From positions 28,523 to 60,522 of the forward strand of contig NZ_VWWL01000025.1 in NCBI RefSeq assembly GCF_011752995.1: a DNA stretch of 32,000 nucleotides, written 5' to 3'. The notes beneath the pieces were generated by a model. The model had not been told where the DNA came from. It made no database searches and saw nothing but the letters and a program-made list of their open reading frames with translations. Shown in pieces: positions 3,212-25,876 of the stretch. Source of the DNA: Burkholderia sp. Ax-1724 (GTDB lineage Bacteria; Pseudomonadota; Gammaproteobacteria; Burkholderiales; Burkholderiaceae). The position numbers and the translations under genes were made by a program. How positions within the stretch are numbered: position 1 is the stretch's first letter; each line of letters begins with the position of its first letter.

Positions 3212-3288
3212 AGGGGAGTCGCCAAGCTGGTTAAGGCACCGGATTTTGATTCCGGCATGCAAAGGTTCGAATCCTTTCTCCCCTGCCA
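3212..3288 (+). tRNA. tRNA-Gln (anticodon UUG)
   Basis: 77 nt. Acceptor stem AGGGGAG/CTCCCCT, anticodon stem CCGGA/TCCGG with loop TTTTGAT (TTG), T-arm GGTTCGAATCC, encoded CCA end. Close to the E. coli tRNA-Gln layout. Confidence 0.92.
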
Positions 3289-9896: not shown

Positions 9897-10289
9897 ATGA
9901 ATCACACTCTTAAATTTGATGGGGTATTCCGCGAGGAATTGACTCACGAACCCGATACCTGGATCGCCAAAGCGTTGTTTAACGCGCCCATTGACCACTT
10001 TAATGATAGAGAACGTCATCAAAGAATGGTAGCCGCAGAGTATTTCGAGGAAACAGCAGAAGAGATGGCAATATGGATGCACAATAACTCAGAAGGGAAA
10101 TTGAAATTTGAGAGGTCATTTAATTTCCATGAAGGACAGGCTGAGTTGGCGGCAACCTTGACGTTTCACGATATGAGCGAGTTCGTTTTGTTTGCGATGG
10201 AGTATTCTGTTGAACGACACGGAATCGGCAACACGGTGAGTTGCTTACCGGATATTCTGAAAAAGACCCTTGGAAATTCCACGGAATGA
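9897..10289 (+). CDS. Hypothetical protein (130 aa)
   Basis: ORF in AT-rich DNA with an AAAGGA SD. No motif recognised. Confidence 0.6.
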   Translation: MNHTLKFDGVFREELTHEPDTWIAKALFNAPIDHFNDRERHQRMVAAEYFEETAEEMAIWMHNNSEGKLKFERSFNFHEGQAELAATLTFHDMSEFVLFAMEYSVERHGIGNTVSCLPDILKKTLGNSTE

Positions 10290-10426
10290 CGCGACCAAGG
10301 CAGTATTGCATGTTGTCGTAGGGGTCATCAGTCTTCCCTTGATGATCCACTACCCCCTCGCTATCCTCGTTTTATCTAGGCATTTCACTCGATGCCGTTC
10401 CGATACGAAGCATAGCAAGGGGTTAA

Positions 10427-10852
10427 ATGTTCGCAATCACACGTTTCCACAATTTCATGTCGCTGTATCAAGGGCGGTACGCTACCGCCCTTGCAAAATC
10501 GCTTGGCACGTCGGTGTTCGCAGCAAAGGCGCTCGACATCGTCCTGTCCACCGGTGAAATCTCACTCGACAAGTTGCGTCTGCTACTCGGTTGCAGTCGC
10601 GGACAGGCAGTTGGTGCCGCATTCGACCTGCACGAGCAGGGCCTAGCCCAAGTCATCAAATTGACAAAAACCTCGAACAGCGAATACTTCCTCGCACCAA
10701 TCGACGCACAATGCGAAGCTGCACGCCGCTATCGCGCCAAGTTGGAACGACTCGGCCGTGACATGGGCCTATCCGATGCTTTCGAAAAGGCGTTGCCTGC
10801 CTTGCAGGCGATCTTCATGGAAGCCCTATCTACGATGGAAGCAAACCAGTAG
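10427..10852 (+). CDS. Winged-helix (MarR-like) protein, paralog A
   Basis: FHNFMSLYQGRYATALAKSLG...GCSRGQAVGAAFDLHEQGLAQV is collinear with the convergent neighbour on the minus strand. Confidence 0.6.
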   Translation: MFAITRFHNFMSLYQGRYATALAKSLGTSVFAAKALDIVLSTGEISLDKLRLLLGCSRGQAVGAAFDLHEQGLAQVIKLTKTSNSEYFLAPIDAQCEAARRYRAKLERLGRDMGLSDAFEKALPALQAIFMEALSTMEANQ

Positions 10853-10884
10853 CACCATCGGCGTTCGGCGGCGCTCGGCACAGC

Positions 10885-11364
10885 TCATACAACCCGCGCC
10901 AATATCCTCCGCTGTGCCTGATACTGGACGTTCTGCGCATCGCCCTGCAGTTCCTCAAGCGCTTTCGTCAGCACGTCCTGATACATCGGTAACAGGGATG
11001 CCAACTGCTCGGTAACTCCGGCCTCGGCTGCCAGATTGAACACCAGTTTGTCATACCCCTCGAATCCGAAAAGTCGCCCCCGTATCGGCTTCAACACCCG
11101 TTGCCGATTGTCGTCACCCTCTTCCGCTATATCGATGTAACCGAGGTGTTGTAGGTCAAATGCAGCGCCGATGATTTGGCCCTGACTTCCGCCAAGGATG
11201 CAGCTCAACTCGTGAAGGGTCATGCCGGGAAATTTCCGGATCAGCCCCAAGGCTCGCGCAGCCATAGGCGTCATCTGCAATGCATGGCCTAGCGCCGATG
11301 CGCGGCAGCTTTCGTAGACAGACATGAACGTGTGGAACTGGGAAAGTGTATCGCTCGTTGTCAT
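10885..11364 (-). CDS. Winged-helix (MarR-like) protein, paralog B
   Basis: FHTFMSVYESCRASALGHALQ...GGSQGQIIGAAFDLQHLGYIDI. The internal ATG at 11364 (MTTSD...) is preferred over the track start at 11427. Confidence 0.6.
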   Translation of the reverse strand: MTTSDTLSQFHTFMSVYESCRASALGHALQMTPMAARALGLIRKFPGMTLHELSCILGGSQGQIIGAAFDLQHLGYIDIAEEGDDNRQRVLKPIRGRLFGFEGYDKLVFNLAAEAGVTEQLASLLPMYQDVLTKALEELQGDAQNVQYQAQRRILARVV

Positions 11365-11472
11365 AGGCTGTTGATTTTTCGGAATAAAATCTGCCGAGCG
11401 GCTTTTGCTTGTGCCCCGACCGCTCACGCAACCTCTGTACGATACGAAAACAGCCCTGAAAATTCAACCGTT

Positions 11473-11536: not shown

Positions 11537-11935
11537 ATGAACATTCATTCCGCTCACACACCCGACGACGCCCAAGACGCCCTCCTAGCTGCCCGCGTCG
11601 GTACCGCCATCGCCGAACAACGACGTGCTCGTGGACTGACCCAAGCCAAGCTTGCGGAGATGATCGACCTGGAGCAGGAAGCGATCAGTCGATGGGAGCG
11701 AGGAACGCGTGTACCGACGTTGCATCGGCTTCAACTACTCAGCGATGCCCTAGGCTGTTCGGTAGACCAACTATTGCAGCGTGGTTCGAAGCGGCCGGAC
11801 GACCAAGTAGCCGTGATCGCGGACGCACTTGAGGGTCTGGATAACGACGAGCGCCTGCTCGTCGTGAATTTCGTCCAGCAGTTAGCCGAGATGCTGAAAG
11901 CAAAGCATCGCAACAAGAGTACCCGGCGCAAGTAG
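11537..11935 (+). CDS. XRE-family helix-turn-helix transcriptional regulator
   Basis: IAEQRRARGLTQAKLAEMIDLEQEAISRWERGTRVPTLHRLQLLSDALGCSVDQLL is a classic HTH_3 pattern. Confidence 0.8.
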   Translation: MNIHSAHTPDDAQDALLAARVGTAIAEQRRARGLTQAKLAEMIDLEQEAISRWERGTRVPTLHRLQLLSDALGCSVDQLLQRGSKRPDDQVAVIADALEGLDNDERLLVVNFVQQLAEMLKAKHRNKSTRRK

Positions 11936-12276: not shown

Positions 12277-12933
12277 GTGGAAACGGAGCGCGAAGTGGAA
12301 AAGGAAAAGCGAAAGGTTGTCGTGCTGCATAGCGGTGGACTGGACTCCACTGTCTGCGTGCTACTTGCCCAGTCGCGCGGCCACGAAGTCGTTAGCCTCG
12401 GCGTCAGCTACAACCAGCATCACCACATCGAGCTGGACTACGCAGCAGCGCAGTGCGCTCGATTCGGCATTGAGCGGAAGATCGTGTCGGTCGCTTGGAG
12501 CAAGCCCGCACGGGAAATCCCAACAAACCGCTCAGTGGCCGAAATCAAGAAGGGGGTTTCGAGTGCGTTCCTTCCTGGGCGCAATGGGATTTTCCTCATG
12601 TTGGCTTCGGCCGAAGCTGCTGGAATTGGCGCCGAAGAAGTGTGGACAGGAATCAACTCGGTCGATTTCTCTGGCTATCCCGACTGCCGCCCCGAGTTCA
12701 TCACAAGTTTCAGAGAGATGCTCTCGTACGCCATTCCCAAGGGCCCAAAGCTCTCCGCGCCGCTGCAAAAGAAGTCGAAGCCTCAGATTGCAAGGCTCGC
12801 CCAGCGTCTGGGTTTGCAGCGCCATGAGACTTGGAGCTGCTACAGGCCAAAGATTGCGGAGGCTGGATTCGTGCCGTGCGGCGCGTGCGACGCGTGCAAG
12901 CTCCACGAGTTCGCGTGGCAGGGCCTTAAGTGA
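12277..12933 (+). CDS. QueC-like PP-loop ATPase (7-cyano-7-deazaguanine synthase family)
   Basis: VVVLHSGGLDSTV PP-loop, GRNGIFL, SCYRP and CGACDACK zinc-cysteine cluster. GTG starts at 12277 or 12295; the latter lies 5 nt after GGAG. Confidence 0.8.
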   Translation: METEREVEKEKRKVVVLHSGGLDSTVCVLLAQSRGHEVVSLGVSYNQHHHIELDYAAAQCARFGIERKIVSVAWSKPAREIPTNRSVAEIKKGVSSAFLPGRNGIFLMLASAEAAGIGAEEVWTGINSVDFSGYPDCRPEFITSFREMLSYAIPKGPKLSAPLQKKSKPQIARLAQRLGLQRHETWSCYRPKIAEAGFVPCGACDACKLHEFAWQGLK

Positions 12934-14168
12934 CGGCGTTCGAGGAGAAAACCCGCGTGAATACAGTTTGTTTAGTCGCCTGTACCAGCAGAAAGGGGGA
13001 TCAGCCGGCCACAGCCGAATTAATCTACCGGTCGCCGCTCTTCTCGGCTGCGCGCAGCTACGCCGAACGGCGCGCTGACCAGTGGTTCATCCTTTCCGCA
13101 AAGCACGGGCTGCTGTCCCCCGGAGACGTAATTGCCCCTTACAACGAGTCGCTCTTGAATCAAAGCGAGGCACAACGACAGGCTTGGGCTGCCGGTGTCC
13201 ATAGAGCCTTCGGTGCGCGCGTGCCCGCCGGGGGGCGCGTCATATTTCTGGCTGGATCCGCGTATCGCTCATATCTTGTCCCTGCATTTGAATCAGAAGG
13301 CCGTGAAACTGCAGCGCCGATGTCGGCGCTGGGAATTGGTAGTCAAGTAGCTTGGCTGCAGAAAGTCGAAAGCGAACACGCACGCCTGTCGCATATTGAT
13401 CGCTTCTATGCGCTTCTGGCACGTGTTGCTGCTTTGAATACCGGTTTGAGCCGAAAACTATCTCAGCAGACAGCCGCGTCTGTTCGACACAAACGCGGCA
13501 TCTACTTCTTCTTTGAAGACGGCGAGATGCGCATGACTGCGCCATTCCAGCACCGAGTTGTTCGAATCGGCACTCATGCGGTCAGCGAAGGGTCAAAGGC
13601 CACCCTGTGGAACCGCCTCCGCACTCACCGTGGCGGAGGCGACGGTCTCGGCAATCACCGGGGATCGGTCTTTCGCCTTCACGTGGGCGAATCCCTCATA
13701 CGACGTGGAAAGCTCGAGCCAATCTTCCCGACGTGGGGCAAGGGGCAGTCTGCATCGGCCGACGTCCGCTCGGCGGAGGAAGAGATTGAGCTCGCAGTCT
13801 CTAAGCACATTGGAGAGATGCAAGTAGCATGGCTGGAGGTGCCTGACACATCGTCGGCGGATAGTGATCGCGGCTACTTGGAAAGGAATTTCATTGCGCT
13901 CCTAGCAGGCCCAACGGGGCCGCTGGATCAGCCAAGTGGGAACTGGCTTGGCCGCTGGAGCACTCGTGAAGCCGTCACAAGCTCAGGGCTCTGGAACGTC
14001 AATCACGTTTACGAGAAATTTGATGCAACGTCTCTAGACGTATTCGAACAACACATTGAAATCGCTGAGGGACGACGTGCGAGAACAGAGCAGTCGTTAG
14101 CTCCGAGTGGATGGCGCCTGCGCATCAAAGAACGCGAAAACGCGAGTGGCCAAATTGATTTGCTATAG
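12930..14168 (+). CDS. Two-domain protein: N-terminal DUF6884-like domain fused to a GIY-YIG-like nuclease domain
   Basis: N-terminus: VCLVACTSRK...WFILSAKHGLLSPGDVIAPYN. C-terminus: GIYFFFEDG...VVRIGTH...LWNRLRTH...FRLHVGESL. The GTG at 12930 overlaps the QueC-like stop (GTGA). An alternative GTG at 12957 lies 8 nt after GAGGAG. Confidence 0.65.
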   Translation: MTAFEEKTRVNTVCLVACTSRKGDQPATAELIYRSPLFSAARSYAERRADQWFILSAKHGLLSPGDVIAPYNESLLNQSEAQRQAWAAGVHRAFGARVPAGGRVIFLAGSAYRSYLVPAFESEGRETAAPMSALGIGSQVAWLQKVESEHARLSHIDRFYALLARVAALNTGLSRKLSQQTAASVRHKRGIYFFFEDGEMRMTAPFQHRVVRIGTHAVSEGSKATLWNRLRTHRGGGDGLGNHRGSVFRLHVGESLIRRGKLEPIFPTWGKGQSASADVRSAEEEIELAVSKHIGEMQVAWLEVPDTSSADSDRGYLERNFIALLAGPTGPLDQPSGNWLGRWSTREAVTSSGLWNVNHVYEKFDATSLDVFEQHIEIAEGRRARTEQSLAPSGWRLRIKERENASGQIDLL

Positions 14169-14176
14169 AGGGGAGC

Positions 14177-15844
14177 ATGACCAAGGAAAAAGAAAACGAT
14201 AAGGATTTTTGCGATCTGCTGAAGCAGTACCCCCGTGCCATCGTGCATTTGCGATCTCAAGTCCGCAAGCATCGCTTCGGCACGATCCTTGGAGCAGGAA
14301 TCAGCGTCGATTTCGGCGCTCCTCAGTGGGGTAAATTAATCAATGACATTGCTTCTGATCCCCAGGTGGACGCAAAAGACGTAGTGGAAGGTAACGCGTT
14401 CAAGAACATGGCTGCGCCCTACCAGACCGAAATTCTCTATCAAAAGTTTCGAGCCGCGTTTTTTGGGAAGTCGACCGAACTATCCCCTGCGGAGGAGCAG
14501 AACACTGCAACGGCAGCGTGGCTCACCATTTGCCAAAAATATTTATACAAAACACCACCAATTGACATAGCCGCTGAGCTGCCGAAGCATCCGTACATGG
14601 AAGCACTGATTCCGCTCGTTCAAGATAGCGCACTAACCGTTAATTTTAACTTCGACGACTATCTCGAGCGAGCGCTCGCCGAAAGGAAACGCGAAAAAGA
14701 CAAGGGCAATCGCGGCTTCGAGGTCGTCACTGATCCTTGGCCACAATTTCGGCGGCAAGACTGTGTGATTTATCATCTGCATGGGTATGTTCCTGCAGGT
14801 CTAATGGAAAAAACGGTCGACCGATTTGTCTTTTCAGAGGCGTCATATTCAAAGCAATACGTCGGAGCGCGCGGCCATGACTCGTCATTTCTTCTTACAC
14901 ACTTCGCCAGAAACACCTGCCTGCTCGTGGGCTGCTCGCTAGAAGCTGAACTTAGAAACGTGTTAATGCGTGGCGCCGAAACAAATCCCGGCAACTTCCA
15001 CTATTATTGCCACTGGATTCCGACTAAGGACACACTTTCCAAGGTCGAGCGGCAGCTAATTTCCGAGACAAATTTCAAAGTTTACAATCTTATAACTCTT
15101 TTTCTGACATCCTCAGAAATCAGGTTATTGCTAAAGCTAATTAATGAAGGTGAGATTTCGGAAGGCAAGCTTAAGGACTTGGCGACACGCAGCGCTACTC
15201 CCCTGAAATACACTTTCTATATGACTGGCTCCATTGGGGTTGGCAAGAGTACGACCACCAGCCATCTCCGCAATTTGAACGTTTTGGACGAGTGGCTCGA
15301 ACCTCGACCCGAGGTGTTAAGCATCCCTTGGGACAAGCTGGCGGACGATCAGAGAGCCTTCGCGGATGAATGGATCGCAAGTCAATTTACGCAAAAGAAT
15401 GACACGCTCAGGCACGAGGAAAATGCCGTGATCAGTGTCGTTGACCGCCCGCCGCTCGACCCACTAGTTTTCACGCCCGAGAGCGAAAGGTCCGCCAAGG
15501 CAAAATTTCTAGCAGATCACCTTTGCCCTGATGACGGACACGGCGGCTACGGCATCGAGAAAGGTGTCGTTATCCTCCTGCTGGGTGACCCCAAAGAGCT
15601 GTCTGCTCGGGTACGTGCCACCGGCAGACAAGAATATACCGCAGGAAAGTTGGAGCGAATGCAGAAAGACATGAAGGCACTGTATCAATCCATGCCGGGA
15701 ACCATCATGATCGATACGCAGTTCATGAGTATCGCGGAGTTAACGAAGCGAGTCGCCGAGGTCATCCACCGTCAGGAATATGTGCCAGCGGATTTGACTA
15801 CAAAGCTGCGGAGCTACATTGGAGCAGGCAGTGGACCGGTTTGA
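14177..15844 (+). CDS. SIR2-like (SIR2_2 type) domain fused to a deoxynucleoside/dNMP-kinase-like P-loop domain
   Basis: SIR2 part: ILGAGISVDFGAPQWGKL, NFNFDDYLE, VIYHLHGYV, LLVGCSLEAE. Kinase part: MTGSIGVGKSTTT Walker A, VVDRPPLDPLVF, LSARVRATGRQEY lid-like motif. AGGGGAG SD. Confidence 0.75.
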   Translation: MTKEKENDKDFCDLLKQYPRAIVHLRSQVRKHRFGTILGAGISVDFGAPQWGKLINDIASDPQVDAKDVVEGNAFKNMAAPYQTEILYQKFRAAFFGKSTELSPAEEQNTATAAWLTICQKYLYKTPPIDIAAELPKHPYMEALIPLVQDSALTVNFNFDDYLERALAERKREKDKGNRGFEVVTDPWPQFRRQDCVIYHLHGYVPAGLMEKTVDRFVFSEASYSKQYVGARGHDSSFLLTHFARNTCLLVGCSLEAELRNVLMRGAETNPGNFHYYCHWIPTKDTLSKVERQLISETNFKVYNLITLFLTSSEIRLLLKLINEGEISEGKLKDLATRSATPLKYTFYMTGSIGVGKSTTTSHLRNLNVLDEWLEPRPEVLSIPWDKLADDQRAFADEWIASQFTQKNDTLRHEENAVISVVDRPPLDPLVFTPESERSAKAKFLADHLCPDDGHGGYGIEKGVVILLLGDPKELSARVRATGRQEYTAGKLERMQKDMKALYQSMPGTIMIDTQFMSIAELTKRVAEVIHRQEYVPADLTTKLRSYIGAGSGPV

Positions 15845-16295
15845 TCACGACCGGCCGCTCGTGTACCTCGCGGCTCCCCTCTTTTCAGAGGCTGAACTCG
15901 ACTTCAACCGCACTCTGGCAGAGCGCATTGAGGCAAGCCTGGATGTCTATCTACCGCAAAGAGACGGCGGCAAGCTCGTTGATCTTCTCGCCTGCGGAGT
16001 GGAGAGACAAGCAGCCTACAAGTCGATTTTCGACCGCGACTTGCGAGCTCTCGAGGCTGCCTGCGCTCTAATTATCGTGCTAGATGGACGTGCGATTGAC
16101 GAAGGCGCAGCCTTCGAACTCGGGTATGCCTATGCCCATTCGAAGCTGTGCTTCGGTCTCCAAACTGATCCGCGACGTTTAGTGCCGGCAGGAAACAATC
16201 CGATGATCGAAATGCCGCTGCAGAAGATTTTCCGCAGTATCGAGAGTGCCGGCGAGTGGGCCGACTCGTTCGCTCGTTTTCAGATAACGCTTTAA
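15819..16295 (+). CDS. Nucleoside 2-deoxyribosyltransferase-like protein
   Basis: VYLAAPLFSEAELDFN and IIVLDGRAIDEGAAFELGYAYA motifs. Start is TTG 15819 or GTG 15831 (6 nt after GGAG); both overlap the end of the SIR2-kinase gene. Confidence 0.75.
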   Translation: MEQAVDRFDHDRPLVYLAAPLFSEAELDFNRTLAERIEASLDVYLPQRDGGKLVDLLACGVERQAAYKSIFDRDLRALEAACALIIVLDGRAIDEGAAFELGYAYAHSKLCFGLQTDPRRLVPAGNNPMIEMPLQKIFRSIESAGEWADSFARFQITL

Positions 16296-16894: not shown

Positions 16895-17137
16895 TTAGAC
16901 GCCCGCCACTCTGAACAGGTCTTGCTTCGTTGACGGCGCAAACCGGGTAATGCCGATGTGCCGATTGAAAAGCTGGACTGCTTTGTCAAAATACTGCTGA
17001 TCGGTCATCCGGCACATGTCCTGTCCGAGCGACCAGCCGCTACCGAGTACGTGCGTCAAGTCAGGTCTGTTTTCGCGCCTAAACCCGAGCGCAAACCGGC
17101 GACGTGCTTCTATCTGAGCAGGATTCGCACGGCTCAT
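16895..17137 (-). CDS. Hypothetical protein (80 aa), translationally coupled to the recombinase
   Basis: Its ATG overlaps the recombinase stop (ATGA). No motif recognised. Confidence 0.45.
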   Translation of the reverse strand: MSRANPAQIEARRRFALGFRRENRPDLTHVLGSGWSLGQDMCRMTDQQYFDKAVQLFNRHIGITRFAPSTKQDLFRVAGV

Positions 17138-17703
17138 CAGACTAGATCCACGGCCTTTCGCTGCATGTCGTCATTGACGTCGATATATCGCTGCGTAGTC
17201 GAAATGTCTCGATGACCTGCGAGCGACATCAACACGCGGACGCCGACGCCTTTGCTCGCGAGATTCGTTATGAACGAACGTCGGCCGGAATGGCTGCTCG
17301 CGCCGTGGATACCCGCTTCCTTATAGAGCCAGTGGAAATACTGACAGAGCGTGTTGGCCGTGAACCCCGCCCGCTTCTGCGTATAGAACAACGGGCCGTC
17401 AAGCTTCGGGGTCTTCAAGCTCGCAACATACGCGGCCAACTCGCGCCGCAATTTCTGCCCGAGGAAAACCGTGCGCGCATGCCGGCCCTTGGTCTGCTCT
17501 GGCGCAAGTCGAATTTCTGACTTGATCGAACCATCTGTATCAAGCACATCGCCCACAAGCAATGCAGCGACTTCGCCAACACGCATACCAGCCCAATGCG
17601 TCAGCAACACCATCGCTCGATTGCGCAGCGCATGCCGTCGCAACGAGATATAGGTCAACACCTGCTTGAGTTCCTTTTCCGTAAATGTCTTGGCCTGCTT
17701 CAT
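17137..17703 (-). CDS. Small tyrosine recombinase (catalytic domain only, about 188 aa)
   Basis: AGMRVGE (Arg), HSGRRSF (H-x-x-R) and GHRDISTTQRY (His/Tyr) catalytic signature. The ATG at 17703 (MKQAKTF) is preferred over 17718. Confidence 0.85.
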   Translation of the reverse strand: MKQAKTFTEKELKQVLTYISLRRHALRNRAMVLLTHWAGMRVGEVAALLVGDVLDTDGSIKSEIRLAPEQTKGRHARTVFLGQKLRRELAAYVASLKTPKLDGPLFYTQKRAGFTANTLCQYFHWLYKEAGIHGASSHSGRRSFITNLASKGVGVRVLMSLAGHRDISTTQRYIDVNDDMQRKAVDLV

Positions 17704-18187
17704 TTCGCCCCCGAACAAACAAAATCCATGTCCAGAGGATGTATTCTTTAGTTATACGGATCAACAAAGGAATGACATCGCGCAGATGTCAGAGGAAACA
17801 AGCGCTTACGCGATAACAAAAGGTTTTAGCAAAAACCTTTTATTTCGACCTGATGCCGAAATGGAATGTCGATTAAACCGACAAGTGCGAGCGCGCTGCT
17901 GCGGAAATTTCTTTCTAACAACGCCGTTGAAGTGGAAGCGGAAGTAAAGGGGGGAAGTGGAAGAGGAACGAATGTGATGTCGTCTGGTTATTTCTTATCA
18001 TATGTACTACTCGACATTTGTTCTTCGCCTTGCATCACATGTAGATATCTGTAATTTCTTCGAGCAGTTCTTCATCGAAATCTATAACCGTAGTAAATCA
18101 TTAAAGAGCCTCGCATGCAGAAGCTCTTCGTGTTGAAAGCTGCGAGGACATTTAGTCATCACGCAGCTAGGCGTTTCTGTCGGAACT

Positions 18188-18691
18188 TTATTCCTTGGGG
18201 ATGTGGACGTTGTCGTAGTCCACGTTGTCGGCGTCGCCTATGCCGACTTCTTTGGTGATGTAGTCAATCCAGCCTTCCGGCGTCAGAGATTGAATGTCGA
18301 TCTGAAAATTGCCGAAGTCTGTTTTAAGCCATGCGGTACGGATTGCACTGTCGATCAGTGCTTCGTCGGCACCTACGCGGAAATTTCCGATCATGCAGTG
18401 ATAGTGCAGTTGCTTATTCGTTGCAAGACCTTCCAGAACAGGGATCACATGAACACTTGCACCGAATCGCTTGGCCGCGTTGCCGTACACGATGGAGTTC
18501 AGGCATTGAATAAATTGCCGGAAATTCTCTTTCGCCTCGATTTCCGTCAGATACCTTTGCATGAGCCCCTTGGGACCCATATATTCGCAACGAGACTTCA
18601 TCGTAAGCGTGACCGCATGAGTGAAATTAGATGCATGCTTACACATCCAATCCTGCGTCTCTTGCCTTAGTTTTTCGTTTTTGTTTGTCAT
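18188..18691 (-). CDS. HUH-motif Rep-like protein (inovirus Gp2 / YfjJ-like, 167 aa)
   Basis: Three rolling-circle Rep motifs in order: FTHAVTLTM (I), LHYHCMIG (HUH, II) and IDYITKEVG (Y-x-x-K, III). Confidence 0.6.
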   Translation of the reverse strand: MTNKNEKLRQETQDWMCKHASNFTHAVTLTMKSRCEYMGPKGLMQRYLTEIEAKENFRQFIQCLNSIVYGNAAKRFGASVHVIPVLEGLATNKQLHYHCMIGNFRVGADEALIDSAIRTAWLKTDFGNFQIDIQSLTPEGWIDYITKEVGIGDADNVDYDNVHIPKE

Positions 18692-20049: not shown

Positions 20050-20673
20050 TTAATCAACAAGCTTCCTAACATGGCCCATCACTTTCGCCGCGAGTTGGAA
20101 CAGATCATGCCCTGAAATTTGATTTTTCTCGGATAGCTCGAAGATCTTCTCGTGCTTGTCGATCCCTTTTCGTCCAGGATCTGGATAACGTCCTGCCCAA
20201 TACACAAAGTGAGTTAGCAATTCAAGAATCGCCATATCCTTCTCGTCGAGGCCATCTATAAATTCAGCAAGCTTTTGAAGGTCATGATGCTGGTACTTAT
20301 TTTCTGTCTCAGAATACGCGCCGACGCCCCCGCCCAAGATAACCATAGCCTTTAAGCACACTTCTAGGCTATATCCCACCAACATCAGTGCAACTGCGCA
20401 ATATTGCGTATCGCAGATCCCCCGTATCTCTACCGGCATATTCCCGAATGCAGGCTCATTACTTATGAGCACAATGGCAGCTTGCGTCATCGCTTCCGCC
20501 TGCGCCATCCACAGAATAGGACTTTTCAGATCGTCACTGGTAGGCGGTTGAGCAGGATCAACCGCGGCCCCATTTGCCGCCGCAAGCATTGCCCAACGTA
20601 GCCAAGCAGAACGACTATAGCCTCCCGGGTCTTGTGCAAAAGAGGCTCTATCGGGCAACATCGGATTAAACAC
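20050..20673 (-). CDS. HEPN-domain-like protein (207 aa)
   Basis: GYSLEVCLKAMVI...HHDLQKLAEFI...WAGRYPDPGRKGIDKH, which contains an R-x5-H motif. Confidence 0.5.
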   Translation of the reverse strand: MFNPMLPDRASFAQDPGGYSRSAWLRWAMLAAANGAAVDPAQPPTSDDLKSPILWMAQAEAMTQAAIVLISNEPAFGNMPVEIRGICDTQYCAVALMLVGYSLEVCLKAMVILGGGVGAYSETENKYQHHDLQKLAEFIDGLDEKDMAILELLTHFVYWAGRYPDPGRKGIDKHEKIFELSEKNQISGHDLFQLAAKVMGHVRKLVD

Positions 20674-21840: not shown

Positions 21841-22947
21841 TTATATCAATCGGAGTTTAGGCGGGTGTCTTGAAAGCGCTTGAGGGGGGGCCTCGCCTGA
21901 GACCACCGACAGACGCGTCAGTTTGAACGTCAGAGCATTGATCTCGTCCACGCTAATGCACAGATTTCTCGCGATTTCACCTCGACCCAACTTGTGGCTC
22001 TGCAGAAAATCCAACACCTTGGTCAGCAATTGGGAGCTTTCACGCTCCATTGGTTCTGGTTCGTTTGTGCGGTAGCCGTTTTTAGCAATTTCAATGCACA
22101 GATTACGGTAGGTCCACTCAGTGACTTGACCCAATGTGTTGTAACGGTACGCCAGCGCTGCCAGTGATACGCCCCAGTAGTGCTTGAGCTTCACCAAATA
22201 TTTGATGGTAAATGCCGGTGGCTTGTTTGCAACTACACTTTCTTTGGGCATAAGAAAGGCAGCAGCAAATGCATCTGCCTGACGTTCCATCTCCGGGCCA
22301 TGTGCCTCACCGTGCCGCATGCTGTAGACATCGCGTACCAAGTGACCTAATTCATGAGCTGCATCGAAGCGACTGCGCTCGGCGGATTTCATCGTATTAA
22401 GAAAAACGAAAGGCTTACTGTCGTACCACGTACAAAATGCATCAACCTCGCGTGCCTCTTCAGCCAACGAAAAGACGCGAACACCTTTTGACTCCAGCAG
22501 GTGAATCATGTTCGGAATGGGTGCGTTGCCCAAACCCCACATACGGCGCAAGGTGGCAGCGGCTTCTTCCGCCCCGAGGTCGCTGAGGTCTGGGAGATCG
22601 GCTTGTGGCAGGTTAAACCTATCTTCCATCCATTCGTTAATTTTGAAGGCGATAGCACCTGCGCCGAGGGCACAATTTTTCATCGCCTCCGTCATCTTGG
22701 AGAGCGAGCGGAAACTAGCCGCATGCTCTCCAATGGTAGGCATCTTTTCTTCAATGAAAAAAAACTGCTGAGGGAAATTCAGCAGTTTTGCCATTTTTGC
22801 CAGCGTTTCCGAGTCAGGAGCTGAAGTCCCAGTCTCGTAGTTTTGAATGCTACGGCTGGTGACCCCCAGCTCTTTGGCCAATTGAGCTTTTGTGAGCCGC
22901 CTTCTAACCCGGGCAAACGTGATTTGCGAAGGGTTGATTTCTGACAT
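21841..22947 (-). CDS. XRE HTH + ImmA/IrrE (M78, COG2856) zinc-metallopeptidase fusion; RmrA-like antitoxin/regulator
   Basis: N-terminal LTKAQLAKELGVTSRSIQNYETG helix-turn-helix. HELGHLV (HEXXH) and ERQADAFAAAFLMP motifs. Confidence 0.8.
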   Translation of the reverse strand: MSEINPSQITFARVRRRLTKAQLAKELGVTSRSIQNYETGTSAPDSETLAKMAKLLNFPQQFFFIEEKMPTIGEHAASFRSLSKMTEAMKNCALGAGAIAFKINEWMEDRFNLPQADLPDLSDLGAEEAAATLRRMWGLGNAPIPNMIHLLESKGVRVFSLAEEAREVDAFCTWYDSKPFVFLNTMKSAERSRFDAAHELGHLVRDVYSMRHGEAHGPEMERQADAFAAAFLMPKESVVANKPPAFTIKYLVKLKHYWGVSLAALAYRYNTLGQVTEWTYRNLCIEIAKNGYRTNEPEPMERESSQLLTKVLDFLQSHKLGRGEIARNLCISVDEINALTFKLTRLSVVSGEAPPQALSRHPPKLRLI

Positions 22948-22956
22948 GATCGTTAA

Positions 22957-23661
22957 TCAAAAAGTGCCTGTCTTAGGCTCGACTTCCACCGTAGCCGGGG
23001 CATTGGGGGTGTCCTTGCGAATCGTGAACTCTGTGGGGTTGTTCGGAATGCTGCCCAGAATCAAGCGCTCCCCCCACTTAGTGATTTTTTTCTTCCCGAA
23101 CCCCGTCGGGTAGGAGAGCTCGAACCGCACTTCATTTAATGCTTTGTCATAGTGGTAGAGGAAAGCCCAGACCTGTGTTTCCTTGCATTTTTCTTTAATC
23201 AGCTTGAGCGCGTCTTGATTAAACAGTTCGAGCTGGCGATTGGAGTGAACGAAACCCTCAACTACCACACCTTTTTCCGCCTGATTAGCCGGATCTTCGA
23301 AGCCCTGCTTGCCCGTCTCGCTGTTACCGGTCATCACCACAATGGAAATGGAGTGATCTGGCGAACTGATGAACGGGCAATTCTTTTCGTTGTGAATGCG
23401 CCACTGCTTATCGCTCAGCTGGGTACGCAGATCCTCCACCGTCTTCAACCATTGCTGCACCCCCGCCGCGGTAACAGCAGAAGCACGCGTAGTGTCGTTA
23501 CGGGCGCCAAGGCCACTCTGGATGACGTTGGTAAAAAGGCTGACGGCTAAGTCCGATGAAAGCTCTTGCAGCCGCGCATCGACAAGCGACGGCTCAACGA
23601 TAGTCTTGGCACGCGGGGCGAAGGCGTCGGAATAGGACAGCTTGAACTTGGGTTTAGCCAC
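22957..23661 (-). CDS. Hypothetical protein (234 aa); candidate toxin/effector partner of the HTH-ImmA gene (RmrT-like position)
   Basis: GTG start 5 nt after AGGAG. 9-nt gap to the downstream HTH-ImmA gene. No motif recognised. Confidence 0.6.
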   Translation of the reverse strand: MAKPKFKLSYSDAFAPRAKTIVEPSLVDARLQELSSDLAVSLFTNVIQSGLGARNDTTRASAVTAAGVQQWLKTVEDLRTQLSDKQWRIHNEKNCPFISSPDHSISIVVMTGNSETGKQGFEDPANQAEKGVVVEGFVHSNRQLELFNQDALKLIKEKCKETQVWAFLYHYDKALNEVRFELSYPTGFGKKKITKWGERLILGSIPNNPTEFTIRKDTPNAPATVEVEPKTGTF

Positions 23662-24130: not shown

Positions 24131-24952
24131 CTAGCAATCTTCTGAACTCAGACCGACGCCACGTACAAACTTAATCCGCTTCCGTAGAACATGTGGCGCA
24201 TGCGTTTGAAGTGCTTTTTCGACAAACTCTCGTGCCTCTGAACTGATTTTGGATCCGAAAATTACTTCTTTGATTGCCTCCGGTGGTACCGCGAACAGAT
24301 GAATTTTTTTCCCTTCCGGTAAGTCTTTAATCTCCGTGGCTTGTGGAAGGTATTTGATAATTCGCCATTCTTTTTCACTCTCCCAAATCGGCGTCTTTGT
24401 GAAGAATATCTCTTTTGGAATATCCAATCGCCCTGGCTCGACATAGACAACCGGAGACGTCGACGTATACAGAACGTTCATCAGCTGTCCGCAAACTTTT
24501 GGTTCGTCGGGCTTGGGCTGGAAGAATTCATTGTGGGAATCGAGACCGATGACTAACCCCTCGTAATCAGCCGCGTAGTGCGCCCACATTGAAGCATTGT
24601 GTGGATCCTCAGTTAAAGACAAAACACCAACGTTTTTATTGGTAGTTCGCATGAATGCTTCGTAAATCTCTTCCACCTTGGAAACCGGATCAAACTGCTG
24701 CTCCAATTGATCGGCGGCTCCCCGGATTCGTTGCCAAGCTTGATCCGGCGAAATATCTGGATGAAGCAACAACATCTGAAAGTAAGCCCTCTCAATGTTC
24801 CGATCAGTGACGGCTTTCGCATAGGCAATAGGGTCGCGCAGTCGAATATCGGGAACTAGCTCCTGCGGATCGTTCAAGTCCTCGGCCGGGGTGAATCGAA
24901 ACATAAAGTTCGAAAAAAACCTTGGCTCTGCCACATATTTATAGATCAACAT
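24131..24952 (-). CDS. DUF2971-family protein (273 aa)
   Basis: N-terminal LIYKYV...FRFTPAEDLNDPQE pattern typical of DUF2971 (recognised from memory). Confidence 0.65.
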   Translation of the reverse strand: MLIYKYVAEPRFFSNFMFRFTPAEDLNDPQELVPDIRLRDPIAYAKAVTDRNIERAYFQMLLLHPDISPDQAWQRIRGAADQLEQQFDPVSKVEEIYEAFMRTTNKNVGVLSLTEDPHNASMWAHYAADYEGLVIGLDSHNEFFQPKPDEPKVCGQLMNVLYTSTSPVVYVEPGRLDIPKEIFFTKTPIWESEKEWRIIKYLPQATEIKDLPEGKKIHLFAVPPEAIKEVIFGSKISSEAREFVEKALQTHAPHVLRKRIKFVRGVGLSSEDC

Positions 24953-24976
24953 TTATCAGATTTCCTCACGGGATTC

Positions 24977-25558
24977 TTATCGAGCCCTATTGGCTGAAGT
25001 ACGGACCATCCACTGGAGTTCAAGCGTTCGAACTAAAGCAACGAAGCGTTCAGCTTCTTCCGGAGTAGGGCGCTCCTTCGAATGTGCCGCTCGGTTTCGT
25101 ATCGAACGGAGTTCTCGCAAAAGCTCAACTTCGTTTTCGGGGATACGCCTTTCTTGTTCAAGTACGTCCAATACTCCTTGATGCTTCGATACATACATCA
25201 ACATCCTGTCACTGTTCGTCGCATCGGAGGCTTGATACAAATCACCACCAACCGCTTCGAGTCCTTTCCATGCCTCCATGATCACGCCAGTAGGATTAGC
25301 ATTTAAAGCTAGAACGTCGTCGTTAGCCGCTGCGGAAAGAACCTGTAGTTCCGCTGGCGTTTCGATTGTCTTGGCGACCTGCTCAGCAGTATCTAGAGAC
25401 TTCTCGAATTTTCCGGATATACCACCAGGAAGACTGATTTCAGTCAACTTGCCCAGCAGCTCCCCAAATCGCTCACTGAAGCGGAACACCAGAACTATTA
25501 CTGTTATTGGCCACGCCGCAGCCTCAATCACTTTAGATGTAAATGTAAGCCAGTCCAA
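24977..25558 (-). CDS. Membrane-anchored HEPN-like protein (R-x4-H)
   Basis: N-terminal hydrophobic helix WLTFTSKVIEAAAWPITVIVLVF. C-terminal LRELRSIRNRAAHS motif. The TTG at 25558 follows GGGGGAG; the ORF stays open up to 25840, so the start is uncertain. Confidence 0.55.
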   Translation of the reverse strand: MDWLTFTSKVIEAAAWPITVIVLVFRFSERFGELLGKLTEISLPGGISGKFEKSLDTAEQVAKTIETPAELQVLSAAANDDVLALNANPTGVIMEAWKGLEAVGGDLYQASDATNSDRMLMYVSKHQGVLDVLEQERRIPENEVELLRELRSIRNRAAHSKERPTPEEAERFVALVRTLELQWMVRTSANRAR

Positions 25559-25690
25559 AGCACTCCCCCGATTTCGAAGTCTGTTTGGCACGGATGCTAT
25601 CACGCAACAACACAACCGACGGACAACCGTGGATTCGATCTCGGTCGCTCCGGTTGCATAAATACTTGCGATAGCGATTAAGACGACGCC

Positions 25691-25876
25691 ATGAGATACC
25701 ACGAAATCCTGACCTACGCCGGTCTGCACGAAGTAGCAGACCTTGAACAACAGCGCATCAAAGCGCAGCAGCAAGCCGCCAAGCGTCAGACCGCCGCAGC
25801 GAAGCGTGCCGACTTGACGCACCGAATCCAGAAGCTGCAAAAGCAGCTATCCGACCTCAACGCAAAACCGATCTGA
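25691..25876 (+). CDS. Possible small coiled-coil protein (61 aa)
   Basis: High-GC ORF with charged heptad-like sequence and a small hairpin downstream. Weak SD. Confidence 0.3.
   Translation: MRYHEILTYAGLHEVADLEQQRIKAQQQAAKRQTAAAKRADLTHRIQKLQKQLSDLNAKPI

Follow-up and report, generated by a model that had tools for sequence, protein, structure and literature searches.

A four-gene QueC, DUF6884, SIR2-kinase and deoxyribosyltransferase cassette from Burkholderia as a candidate nucleotide-based defence system

What could a QueC-family enzyme, a DUF6884 protein with a nuclease-like half, a SIR2-kinase fusion and a nucleoside 2'-deoxyribosyltransferase (NDT) do together? The question is raised by four consecutive genes, here called g1 to g4, at positions 12277-16295 of a 32,000-nucleotide (nt) stretch of Burkholderia sp. 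Ax-1724 (contig NZ_VWWL01000025.1). This whole stretch is referred to as the window, and coordinates are those of the window unless a locus is named. An initial annotation, made from the letters alone, had proposed that the four genes form an undescribed, self-contained and nucleotide-centred anti-phage system. The analysis presented here indicates that the cassette is probably a defence system of some kind, and it is best classed with the nucleotide-signal/SIR2 abortive-infection systems, with one part of it, g2, already catalogued as a candidate. A tentative reading, which we regard as somewhat short of an even chance, is that QueC, NDT and the kinase would make a 7-deazaguanine deoxynucleotide, with activation of the SIR2 NADase, labelling of DNA for the DUF6884-nuclease, or both as the outcome.

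Layout and predicted products of the cassette

All four open reading frames (ORFs) lie on the forward strand and occupy the positions given in the initial annotation: g1 at 12277-12933 (218 aa), g2 at 12930-14168 (412 aa), g3 at 14177-15844 (555 aa) and g4 at 15819-16295 (158 aa). The motifs quoted for them are all present in the translations, and the three coupled junctions were confirmed by reading them base by base. At 12930-12933, the tetranucleotide GTGA places the GTG start of g2 over the TGA stop of g1, an arrangement of translational coupling. g2 and g3 are separated by the 8-nt spacer AGGGGAGC at 14169-14176, which is Shine-Dalgarno-like and stands immediately 5' of the ATG of g3. The third junction, at 15819-15844, is an overlap of 14-26 nt: the TGA stop of g3 is at 15842-15844, and the overlap is 26 nt if g4 starts at TTG 15819 and 14 nt if it starts at GTG 15831. 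The GTG, which GGAG precedes (15821-15824), is the more plausible start. The start of g1 is likewise probably GTG 12295 and not 12277, since the homologues all align from residue 17 onward only and GGAG is found at 12284-12287. A scan for promoter and terminator consensus sequences gave no excess relative to shuffled sequence.

The product of g1 is, as judged from its sequence, a canonical-type QueC with the predicted activity of the 7-cyano-7-deazaguanine synthase family. It matches Pfam QueC at 1e-53 and scores 158.9 bits against TIGR00364 (QueC), above the cutoff of 150.3. Among PDB structures, the match to QueC of B. subtilis (3bl5) is at 5.5e-32 and that to Cap9 (9nto) at 1.7e-9. The canonical QueC signature, experimentally defined in 2026 (PMC13329287), comprises SGGxDS, YxQxHxxE, VPxRN, YPDC, a lysine, and the zinc cysteines with a tyrosine. 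g1 carries the complete signature as SGGLDS, YNQHHHIE, LPGRN, GYPDC, the lysine and CY..CGACDAC; it deviates in having LPGRN in place of VPxRN and a 4-residue insertion in the cysteine motif. At 21 cassette loci the motif cores are invariant, apart from the YxQxH histidine and the leading residue of VPxRN, which is leucine in g1. An identity of g1 as QatC was ruled out by the model NF041925, against which it scores 16 bits with a cutoff of 280; the PADLOC QatC model gave an E-value of 0.055.

The product of g4 is a type II NDT of the DpNDT kind, again a predicted activity. It matches Pfam Nuc_deoxyrib_tr at 1.2e-18 and DpNDT (PDB 7O62) at 8.2e-38, with 49% identity over 138 aa. The catalytic set of DpNDT is kept at the same positions (Y16, D74, D94, the nucleophile E100, N127 and M129), which makes the two active sites identical, and the tetramer residues F22, E26 and R119 are kept as well; both sets are invariant at 23 loci. 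None of the PADLOC models, ThsB included, matches g4, and Pfam gives no TIR match.

In g3, an N-terminal SIR2 NADase-type domain (14234-15181) is fused to a C-terminal P-loop kinase domain (15194-15826). Pfam assigns SIR2_2 at 5.4e-13, and the predicted model of the protein is confident (pLDDT 90, pTM 0.90). Foldseek comparison of the N-terminal half retrieved BcThsA as the best match (9.6e-12), together with KomC/KomBC (TM 0.69-0.74) and DSR2. PADLOC gave weak N-terminal matches to the ThsA and LmuA models, of which the ThsA models cover residues 22-68 only. The SIR2 residues G39, G41, N158, F159, D160, H200, G203 and E221 are invariant in all 88 sequences aligned. The C-terminal half, judged on the model, is clearly of the deoxynucleoside-kinase / dTMP-kinase fold. 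Its matches are viral deoxynucleoside kinases (dNK), deoxycytidine kinases (dCK), deoxyadenosine/deoxyguanosine kinases (dAK/dGK) and dTMP kinases, with E-values of 4e-5 to 1e-3, a probability of 1.0 and TM up to 0.76; the fold class was read solely from the viral fold library BFVD, where SIR2 matches do not crowd the list. The kinase residues K357, D371, E372, W373, Q403, F404, D423, R424 and R478 are likewise invariant in 88 of 88 sequences, and the Walker A, DR and lid residues are among them. By sequence, the kinase half of the window protein is weak (AAA_28, E 1e-3); over 23 loci, Pfam gives AAA_28 in every one (best 1e-8), Thymidylate_kin in 5 and dNK in 3. An exhaustive search over 1.84 billion representatives shows that the SIR2-kinase family is compact, with 181 clusters at 50% identity (E <= 1e-30), nearly all of them full-length at about 550 aa. 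No SIR2-kinase match was found in 50,697 phage genomes.

The product of g2 also consists of two parts. The N-terminal part (12966-13364) is a DUF6884 domain of the YaaA/DpdC-like 'cantaloupe' fold, with the motifs CxxxK and LSAxxG and a Pfam match of 4.9e-42; weaker matches are to DpdC (PADLOC model, 3.2e-4) and YaaA. The C-terminal part (13380-14066) is GIY_YIG_3-like (PF26468), a label that its homologues bear in precomputed Pfam annotation. In PADLOC, residues 11-146 match PDC-M57A (6.4e-34) and residues 151-379 match PDC-M57B (8.2e-74), and g2 is therefore that candidate two-gene system in fused form. An alignment of 66 sequences shows C18, K22, S56, Y71, G109 and R113 to be invariant in the DUF6884 domain, and G190, Y192, R212, G214, H216, R229, H233, E318 and N320 in the C-terminal domain. 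In the predicted model (pLDDT 87) the latter has a beta-beta-alpha-alpha-beta-alpha topology that fits the GIY-YIG core, with an arginine in place of the tyrosine of 'YIG'. The label, the motifs and the predicted topology point to a probable nuclease effector. The DUF6884 domain is proposed as a base- or DNA-recognition sensor; the Pfam paper describes DUF6884 as distantly related to PF03883 and reports that YfjM is predicted to flip a base out of DNA. Thus, of the domain calls in the initial annotation, QueC, DUF6884, SIR2 and NDT are borne out by profile or structure and the kinase by fold, with weak sequence matches, while the support for GIY-YIG comes from label, motifs and topology.

Conservation and modular composition

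At more than 35 loci, spread over at least six phyla, the genes keep the order g1-g2-g3-g4. Order and strand are identical in at least 19 of 24 species-representative loci, and the order is kept at these loci wherever the sequence suffices; the metagenomes add 11 complete and about 13 partial loci. The species-representative loci belong to Pseudomonadota, Desulfobacterota/Thermodesulfobacteriota, Nitrospirota, Acidobacteriota, Planctomycetota, the FCB group and Binatia. When the distance matrices of the four genes were compared in pairs across 18 loci, their correlation r was 0.75-0.91, values that were reached in 0 of 2000 permutations. By their sequences the four genes thus co-diverge as one unit of inheritance, and the cassette is horizontally mobile, in line with the co-conservation in unrelated genomes that the initial annotation had named as a check. 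The cassette is missing from 5,426 complete E. coli genomes.

The neighbours of the cassette elsewhere agree with the defence-island setting first proposed for the window, where RmrTA and PDC-S31 lie nearby. At one locus BREX flanks the cassette on both sides; others have DNA methylases and UvrD, Lamassu-like genes with a type I HsdR and an integrase, or a Gabija-like AAA_15/UvrD pair. Among IMG/VR contigs, one has the full cassette between a portal/endolysin region and a tail gene, and another has the SIR2-kinase and NDT genes inside a lambdoid prophage. A decayed copy is present in P. aeruginosa CP110347 (L003, 3811-10125), where g1 and most of g2 have given way to IS110 and IS3-type elements, and a remnant of the g2 C-terminus is left beside an intact SIR2-kinase and NDT. 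A weak PD-(D/E)XK-like protein of 350-415 aa adjoins the cassette, usually just downstream of NDT, in 7 of 27 loci (L001 at 10260-11423, L010, L012, L013, L014, L024 and L025). It was considered as a conserved fifth gene and ruled out, being confined to these 7 loci and not found in the window.

The initial annotation had described a self-contained single module, and this part of it did not hold. As read from the sequences, the cassette is a composite in which a core pair of SIR2-kinase and NDT is joined to a DUF6884 plus GIY_YIG_3 module, with QueC the most peripheral component. The core pair is found by itself on a plasmid of Eleftheria, within a prophage and in metagenomes. NDT stands upstream of SIR2-kinase, in inverted order, at one locus, and the pairing persists at 29% identity. 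In a variant represented by a Rhizobium sp. CC1099 plasmid (L029, 3363-9111) and by L023, a 1212-aa KAP-family P-loop NTPase replaces QueC and DUF6884-GIY upstream of the core pair and has a start/stop overlap with the next gene. DUF6884 and GIY_YIG_3 occur alone in at least eight loci, fused or as two overlapping genes, and one full cassette (L117) carries them as separate genes. A divergent clade (L034, L069 and L118) has DUF6884-GIY, SIR2-kinase and NDT without QueC; in L034 (107-4933) this variant is flanked upstream by a HIT-family nucleotide hydrolase/transferase and downstream by a weak HhH-GPD glycosylase-like ORF. Another member of the family follows a HAD hydrolase. The two modules are linked in the Rosetta-stone manner by a single 686-aa protein (L115, 1790-3850), in which DUF6884 is fused to the N-terminus of SIR2-kinase, and QueC was seen only at loci having both modules. 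We take this as an argument for DUF6884 being a portable recognition domain with either effector at its service, for an obligate partnership of NDT with SIR2-kinase, and for communication between the two modules.

Proposed chemistry, rival explanations and known systems

The link of the cassette to 7-deazaguanine extends beyond g1. DpdC of the Dpd system belongs to DUF328/PF03883 and hydrolyses dPreQ0 in DNA to dADG, and a divergent partner of GIY_YIG_3 matches both the DpdC and the YaaA families. In Halorubrum tailed virus 29 (HRTV-29, genus Dpdavirus; L119, 6007-7132, gp32-gp33), a DUF6884 gene overlaps the start of the annotated DpdA gene. Its protein matches Pfam DUF6884 at 3e-31 and is 35% identical to the N-terminal domain of g2; the original HRTV-29 paper listed the gene as a 'YaaA' metabolic gene. 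HRTV-29 is without a preQ0 pathway of its own. The pairing suggests that DUF6884 acts in the manner of DpdC when viral DNA is modified with 7-deazaguanine. In addition, about 89% of a separate QueC-like clade ('Cluster 4') is linked to a PfkB-kinase-NDT fusion, which presents the same triad of activities. Purine nucleoside phosphorylase (PNP) does not act on 7-deazapurine nucleosides, which makes an NDT-type transferase the plausible route and would, we infer, account for the need for NDT.

Based on these features, the following sequence of steps can be proposed. QueC would convert host 7-carboxy-7-deazaguanine (CDG) to preQ0 or the amide ADG. NDT would then move this base onto the deoxyribose of a 2'-deoxynucleoside, giving a 7-deaza-2'-deoxyguanosine derivative, and the kinase domain would phosphorylate the derivative to its 5'-phosphate. 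The trigger could be the supply of deoxynucleoside donors, which may be scarce until the phage breaks down host DNA; alternatively, a phage dNMP kinase could act as in Kongming. As one output, the product or a further phosphorylated form would activate the fused SIR2 NADase, leading to NAD+ depletion and abortive infection by analogy with ThsA and KomBC. As another, the product would be built into replicating DNA and read by DUF6884, which would license the fused nuclease. The stronger version, in which a 7-deazaguanine 2'-deoxynucleotide made on demand is both the second messenger firing the SIR2 NADase and a 'bait' base in phage DNA that DUF6884 reads to direct the nuclease, is doubtful. The chemical steps, the identity of the product, the trigger by infection, the NADase and nuclease activities and the defence phenotype are all put forward as predictions.

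Several observations weigh against this scheme. The core pair is found without QueC in several lineages, and therefore its ligand need not be a QueC product. DUF6884-GIY_YIG_3 is found alone, and the two halves of the cassette could therefore be independent systems. The genes queD, queE and folE are not among the recurrent neighbours of 27 cassette loci, so the cassette relies on host CDG. PreQ0 is already made by most hosts, and the scheme gives no reason for a second QueC. The four genes look co-transcribed, and nothing evident would prevent formation of the product in uninfected cells. In the SIR2 domain, the canonical 'HG' histidine H202 (motif Y-H200-x-H202-G203, 14774-14785) is asparagine in 20 of the 88 sequences; the catalytic histidine may, on the alignment, have shifted two residues along the strand to the invariant H200. 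The sequence profile of the kinase domain has no match under E 0.05 in the PDB, and its best Pfam match is the generic AAA_28, which gives no substrate. For g2, the predicted model has no match among PDB folds at E <= 0.001, the best being an unrelated hydrolase (E 0.0096, TM 0.17), and domain-only profiles against the PDB retrieve no GIY-YIG nuclease, and YaaA only at E 0.53. Alignment of the C-terminal domain profile with the N-termini of I-TevI and UvrC by hhalign, using approximate sequences of these N-termini, gave a probability below 1%, and the domain has no match even at E 10 in a Pfam copy that lacks PF26468.

The modularity raises the question of whether the cassette is one system at all. 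It may consist of two independent systems that lie side by side and are inherited together, namely a PDC-M57-type sensor-nuclease (with QueC) and a SIR2-kinase plus NDT abortive-infection pair, which would have no common metabolite and no communication. Clustering of defence systems is common, and this explanation suits both the loci with DUF6884 and GIY_YIG_3 by themselves and those in which the core pair is alone or accompanied by a KAP NTPase. Nevertheless, start/stop overlaps join all four genes, the gene order stays the same across phyla, at more than 35 loci, and the co-divergence is strong; moreover, the two modules are physically fused in L115 and QueC is found only alongside both. Two independent systems are thus unlikely, although they deserve some weight. 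A different division of labour would have NDT and the kinase detect or use up phage-derived deoxynucleosides or modified bases, or would make NDT a TIR-like NAD enzyme, with QueC and DUF6884 acting separately, for example as a modification-dependent nuclease against 7-deazaguanine phage DNA. NDT is related to TIR, retron Ec86 has NDT-like effectors that deplete NAD+, and there is a virus in which DUF6884 is linked to DpdA. The variant loci with other nucleotide enzymes (HIT, HAD and HhH-GPD-like) and the occurrence of the core pair without QueC are also in its favour. This explanation is distinctly unlikely, given that g4 shares 49% identity and the entire active site with a true deoxyribosyltransferase, and that a modification-dependent nuclease would find a QueC of its own superfluous.

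The QueC enzyme could instead act on proteins. In this case g1 would work like Cap9 and QatC, adenylating CDG and conjugating it to an amine of g2, g3 or g4 ('deazaguanylation'), which would prime or regulate the effectors and leave no free base for NDT. In the two defence roles known for the QueC fold, proteins are what is modified, and Cap9, whose structure g1 does match (1.7e-9), retains every element of the canonical QueC active-site signature although its target is a protein N-terminus. However, g1 is far nearer to biosynthetic QueC, as its score above the TIGR00364 cutoff also indicates, and it is of canonical length, compared with about 185 aa for Cap9 and about 400 aa for QatC. A conserved N-terminal glycine as substrate for a Cap9-type modification was looked for in g2 and g3 and ruled out, the N-termini of both being variable. 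Since the NDT-kinase pair would also be left unexplained, protein deazaguanylation appears quite improbable. Finally, QueC, NDT and kinase together make up a coherent route of biosynthesis, modified dGTP has been proposed to arise in some phages by modification of the nucleotide, and the cassette is found in prophage-like contigs. It could therefore be read as a non-immune pathway of salvage, DNA hypermodification or nucleoside natural-product synthesis, whose 7-deaza-2'-deoxyguanosine nucleotides would either go into the DNA of the element itself or be exported. Salvage has no use for a SIR2 domain closest to the defence NADases, nor for a nuclease-like protein, and the cassette has no DpdA/TGT, polymerase or exporter. 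Its sporadic distribution beside BREX, restriction-modification, Lamassu and Gabija genes and the lack of SIR2-kinase in the phage genomes searched make such a pathway highly improbable.

Comparison with known systems places the preferred reading, a 7-deazaguanine deoxynucleotide made by the cassette itself, between several precedents. Kongming (KomABC) has a SIR2 NADase effector, and the resemblance of the g3 N-terminal half to KomC/KomBC makes this half a predicted NADase. It is likewise an operon with nucleotide-modifying enzymes, in which a deoxynucleotide kinase step contributes to a base-modified deoxynucleotide signal; the initial annotation had referred to this mechanism correctly. In contrast to Kongming, neither the cassette nor the neighbouring ORFs contain a KomA deaminase or a KomB HAM1-like dITP sensor by Pfam. 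The kinase is supplied by the phage in Kongming but fused to SIR2 in g3. The base is hypoxanthine formed by deamination in Kongming, whereas in the cassette it would be 7-deazaguanine obtained via QueC and NDT, and the cassette has an extra DUF6884-nuclease protein. Thoeris provides the best fold match of g3, ThsA, and both proteins have an N-terminal SIR2 and a C-terminal small-molecule-binding domain and are partnered with a small TIR/NDT-like enzyme that could make the ligand. Nevertheless, the C-terminal domain of ThsA is SLOG and that of g3 a dNK-fold P-loop kinase with intact catalytic residues, and the partner g4 is an NDT and not a TIR protein (ThsB); no chemistry of the cyclic ADP-ribose type is implied.

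QatABCD and type IV CBASS share with the cassette a QueC-fold PP-loop enzyme in a defence operon, and in the Rhizobium variant the core pair comes with a KAP NTPase, which is of the same Pfam family as QatA. As first noted from the sequence, the usual partners of QatC, Cap9 and ThsA are missing: the window has no QatA, QatB or QatD (KAP ATPase, TatD), no CD-NTase and no TGT-like Cap10, and no TIR match was found. Furthermore, g1 fails the QatC model and matches QueC far better than Cap9. The Dpd system also uses preQ0 from QueC, and its DpdC, which acts on dPreQ0 in DNA, is in the DUF6884 superfamily. Unlike Dpd, the cassette has neither the DpdA transglycosylase nor DpdB (no TGT or ParB-like protein) nor helicases, and its base would enter DNA through the nucleotide pool, by NDT and kinase, and not by base exchange in DNA. 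The Cluster 4 loci with PfkB-NDT have the same combination of QueC-like enzyme, kinase and NDT; they differ in a remodelled QueC-like enzyme, a PfkB-type kinase and the lack of SIR2 and nuclease, and have been interpreted as purine salvage. DpNDT itself has been studied as an isolated biocatalyst.

PDC-M57 (A = DUF6884, B = GIY_YIG_3), a computational candidate in PADLOC, has both parts of g2 and occurs in split form in metagenomes and in L117. The cassette differs in having these parts fused and set between QueC and the SIR2-kinase/NDT pair. Full-text literature searches found no published description of the four-gene cassette or of PDC-M57, and a 2026 survey of the QueC family makes no mention of SIR2, DUF6884, GIY-YIG or a kinase. 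No named system in PADLOC or in the literature searched matches the whole cassette, as expected for an undescribed system, but the claim of novelty does not extend to g2, which is already a PADLOC-DB candidate.

If the preferred reading is true, making a modified base, swapping it onto deoxyribose and phosphorylating it would be a third, chemically distinct route to an immune nucleotide, beside TIR/CD-NTase cyclisation and the deamination of Kongming. The QueC fold would serve defence in its original biosynthetic role, beyond protein deazaguanylation. The stronger version would moreover provide the first immune signal from the queuosine-precursor pathway and the first case of defence by enzymes that swap a base onto deoxyribose. 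DUF6884, together with B. subtilis YfjM-type proteins, would gain a testable function as a reader of 7-deazaguanine or another modified base, and PDC-M57 gains a context. The SIR2-deoxynucleoside-kinase fusions also emerge as a compact family whose NDT partner is obligate, and an immune origin is suggested for the DpNDT subfamily, which has been studied industrially. Each step is open to direct testing, with four small, soluble-looking proteins and preQ0 commercially available.

Surroundings of the cassette in the window

The cassette sits in a lower-GC island of the window. The low-GC stretch extends over about 7-28 kb and looks like a mosaic of integrated elements; by Pfam and PADLOC, the island holds integrases, Rep genes, RmrTA and PDC-S31. 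Immediately upstream of g1 is an XRE/RstR-like helix-turn-helix (HTH) gene at 11537-11935 (+), with matches to HTH_3 at 3.6e-16 and, under the cutoff, to NCBIfam RstR at 5.5e-18. The XRE regulator named in the initial annotation is thus a real gene, but it is not part of the conserved unit: no homologue occurs at any of 27 cassette loci examined, and a role as conserved cassette regulator was ruled out because it is missing from all the other loci.

A truncated tyrosine integrase of 193 aa follows the cassette directly, and one full integrase and two replication-initiator-like genes are also in the island. These integrase and replication genes (tyrosine integrases, REP_ORF2-G2P and Rep_trans) are located at 17137-17718, 18188-18691, 26019-27005 and 28802-29890. 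The RmrT/RmrA pair is at 21841-23661 on the reverse strand, where a 368-aa HTH plus Peptidase_M78 protein matches PADLOC RmrA at 6.8e-151 and the adjoining 234-aa protein matches RmrT at 6e-56. A DUF2971 protein, the PADLOC candidate PDC-S31 (2.3e-31), and its DUF4145/HEPN_Swt1-like neighbour lie at 24131-25840, also on the reverse strand. A weak HEPN-like ORF is present at 20050-20673.

Upstream of the XRE gene, the ORFs at 10427-10852 (+) and 10885-11427 (-) are convergent and clearly paralogous, with the common motifs FH.FMS.Y....A.AL... and GAAFDL; one of the two has a weak MarR_2 match. The sole RNA gene detected in the window is a tRNA-Gln(TTG) at 3212-3288, located in the high-GC core about 4 kb ahead of the drop in GC content.

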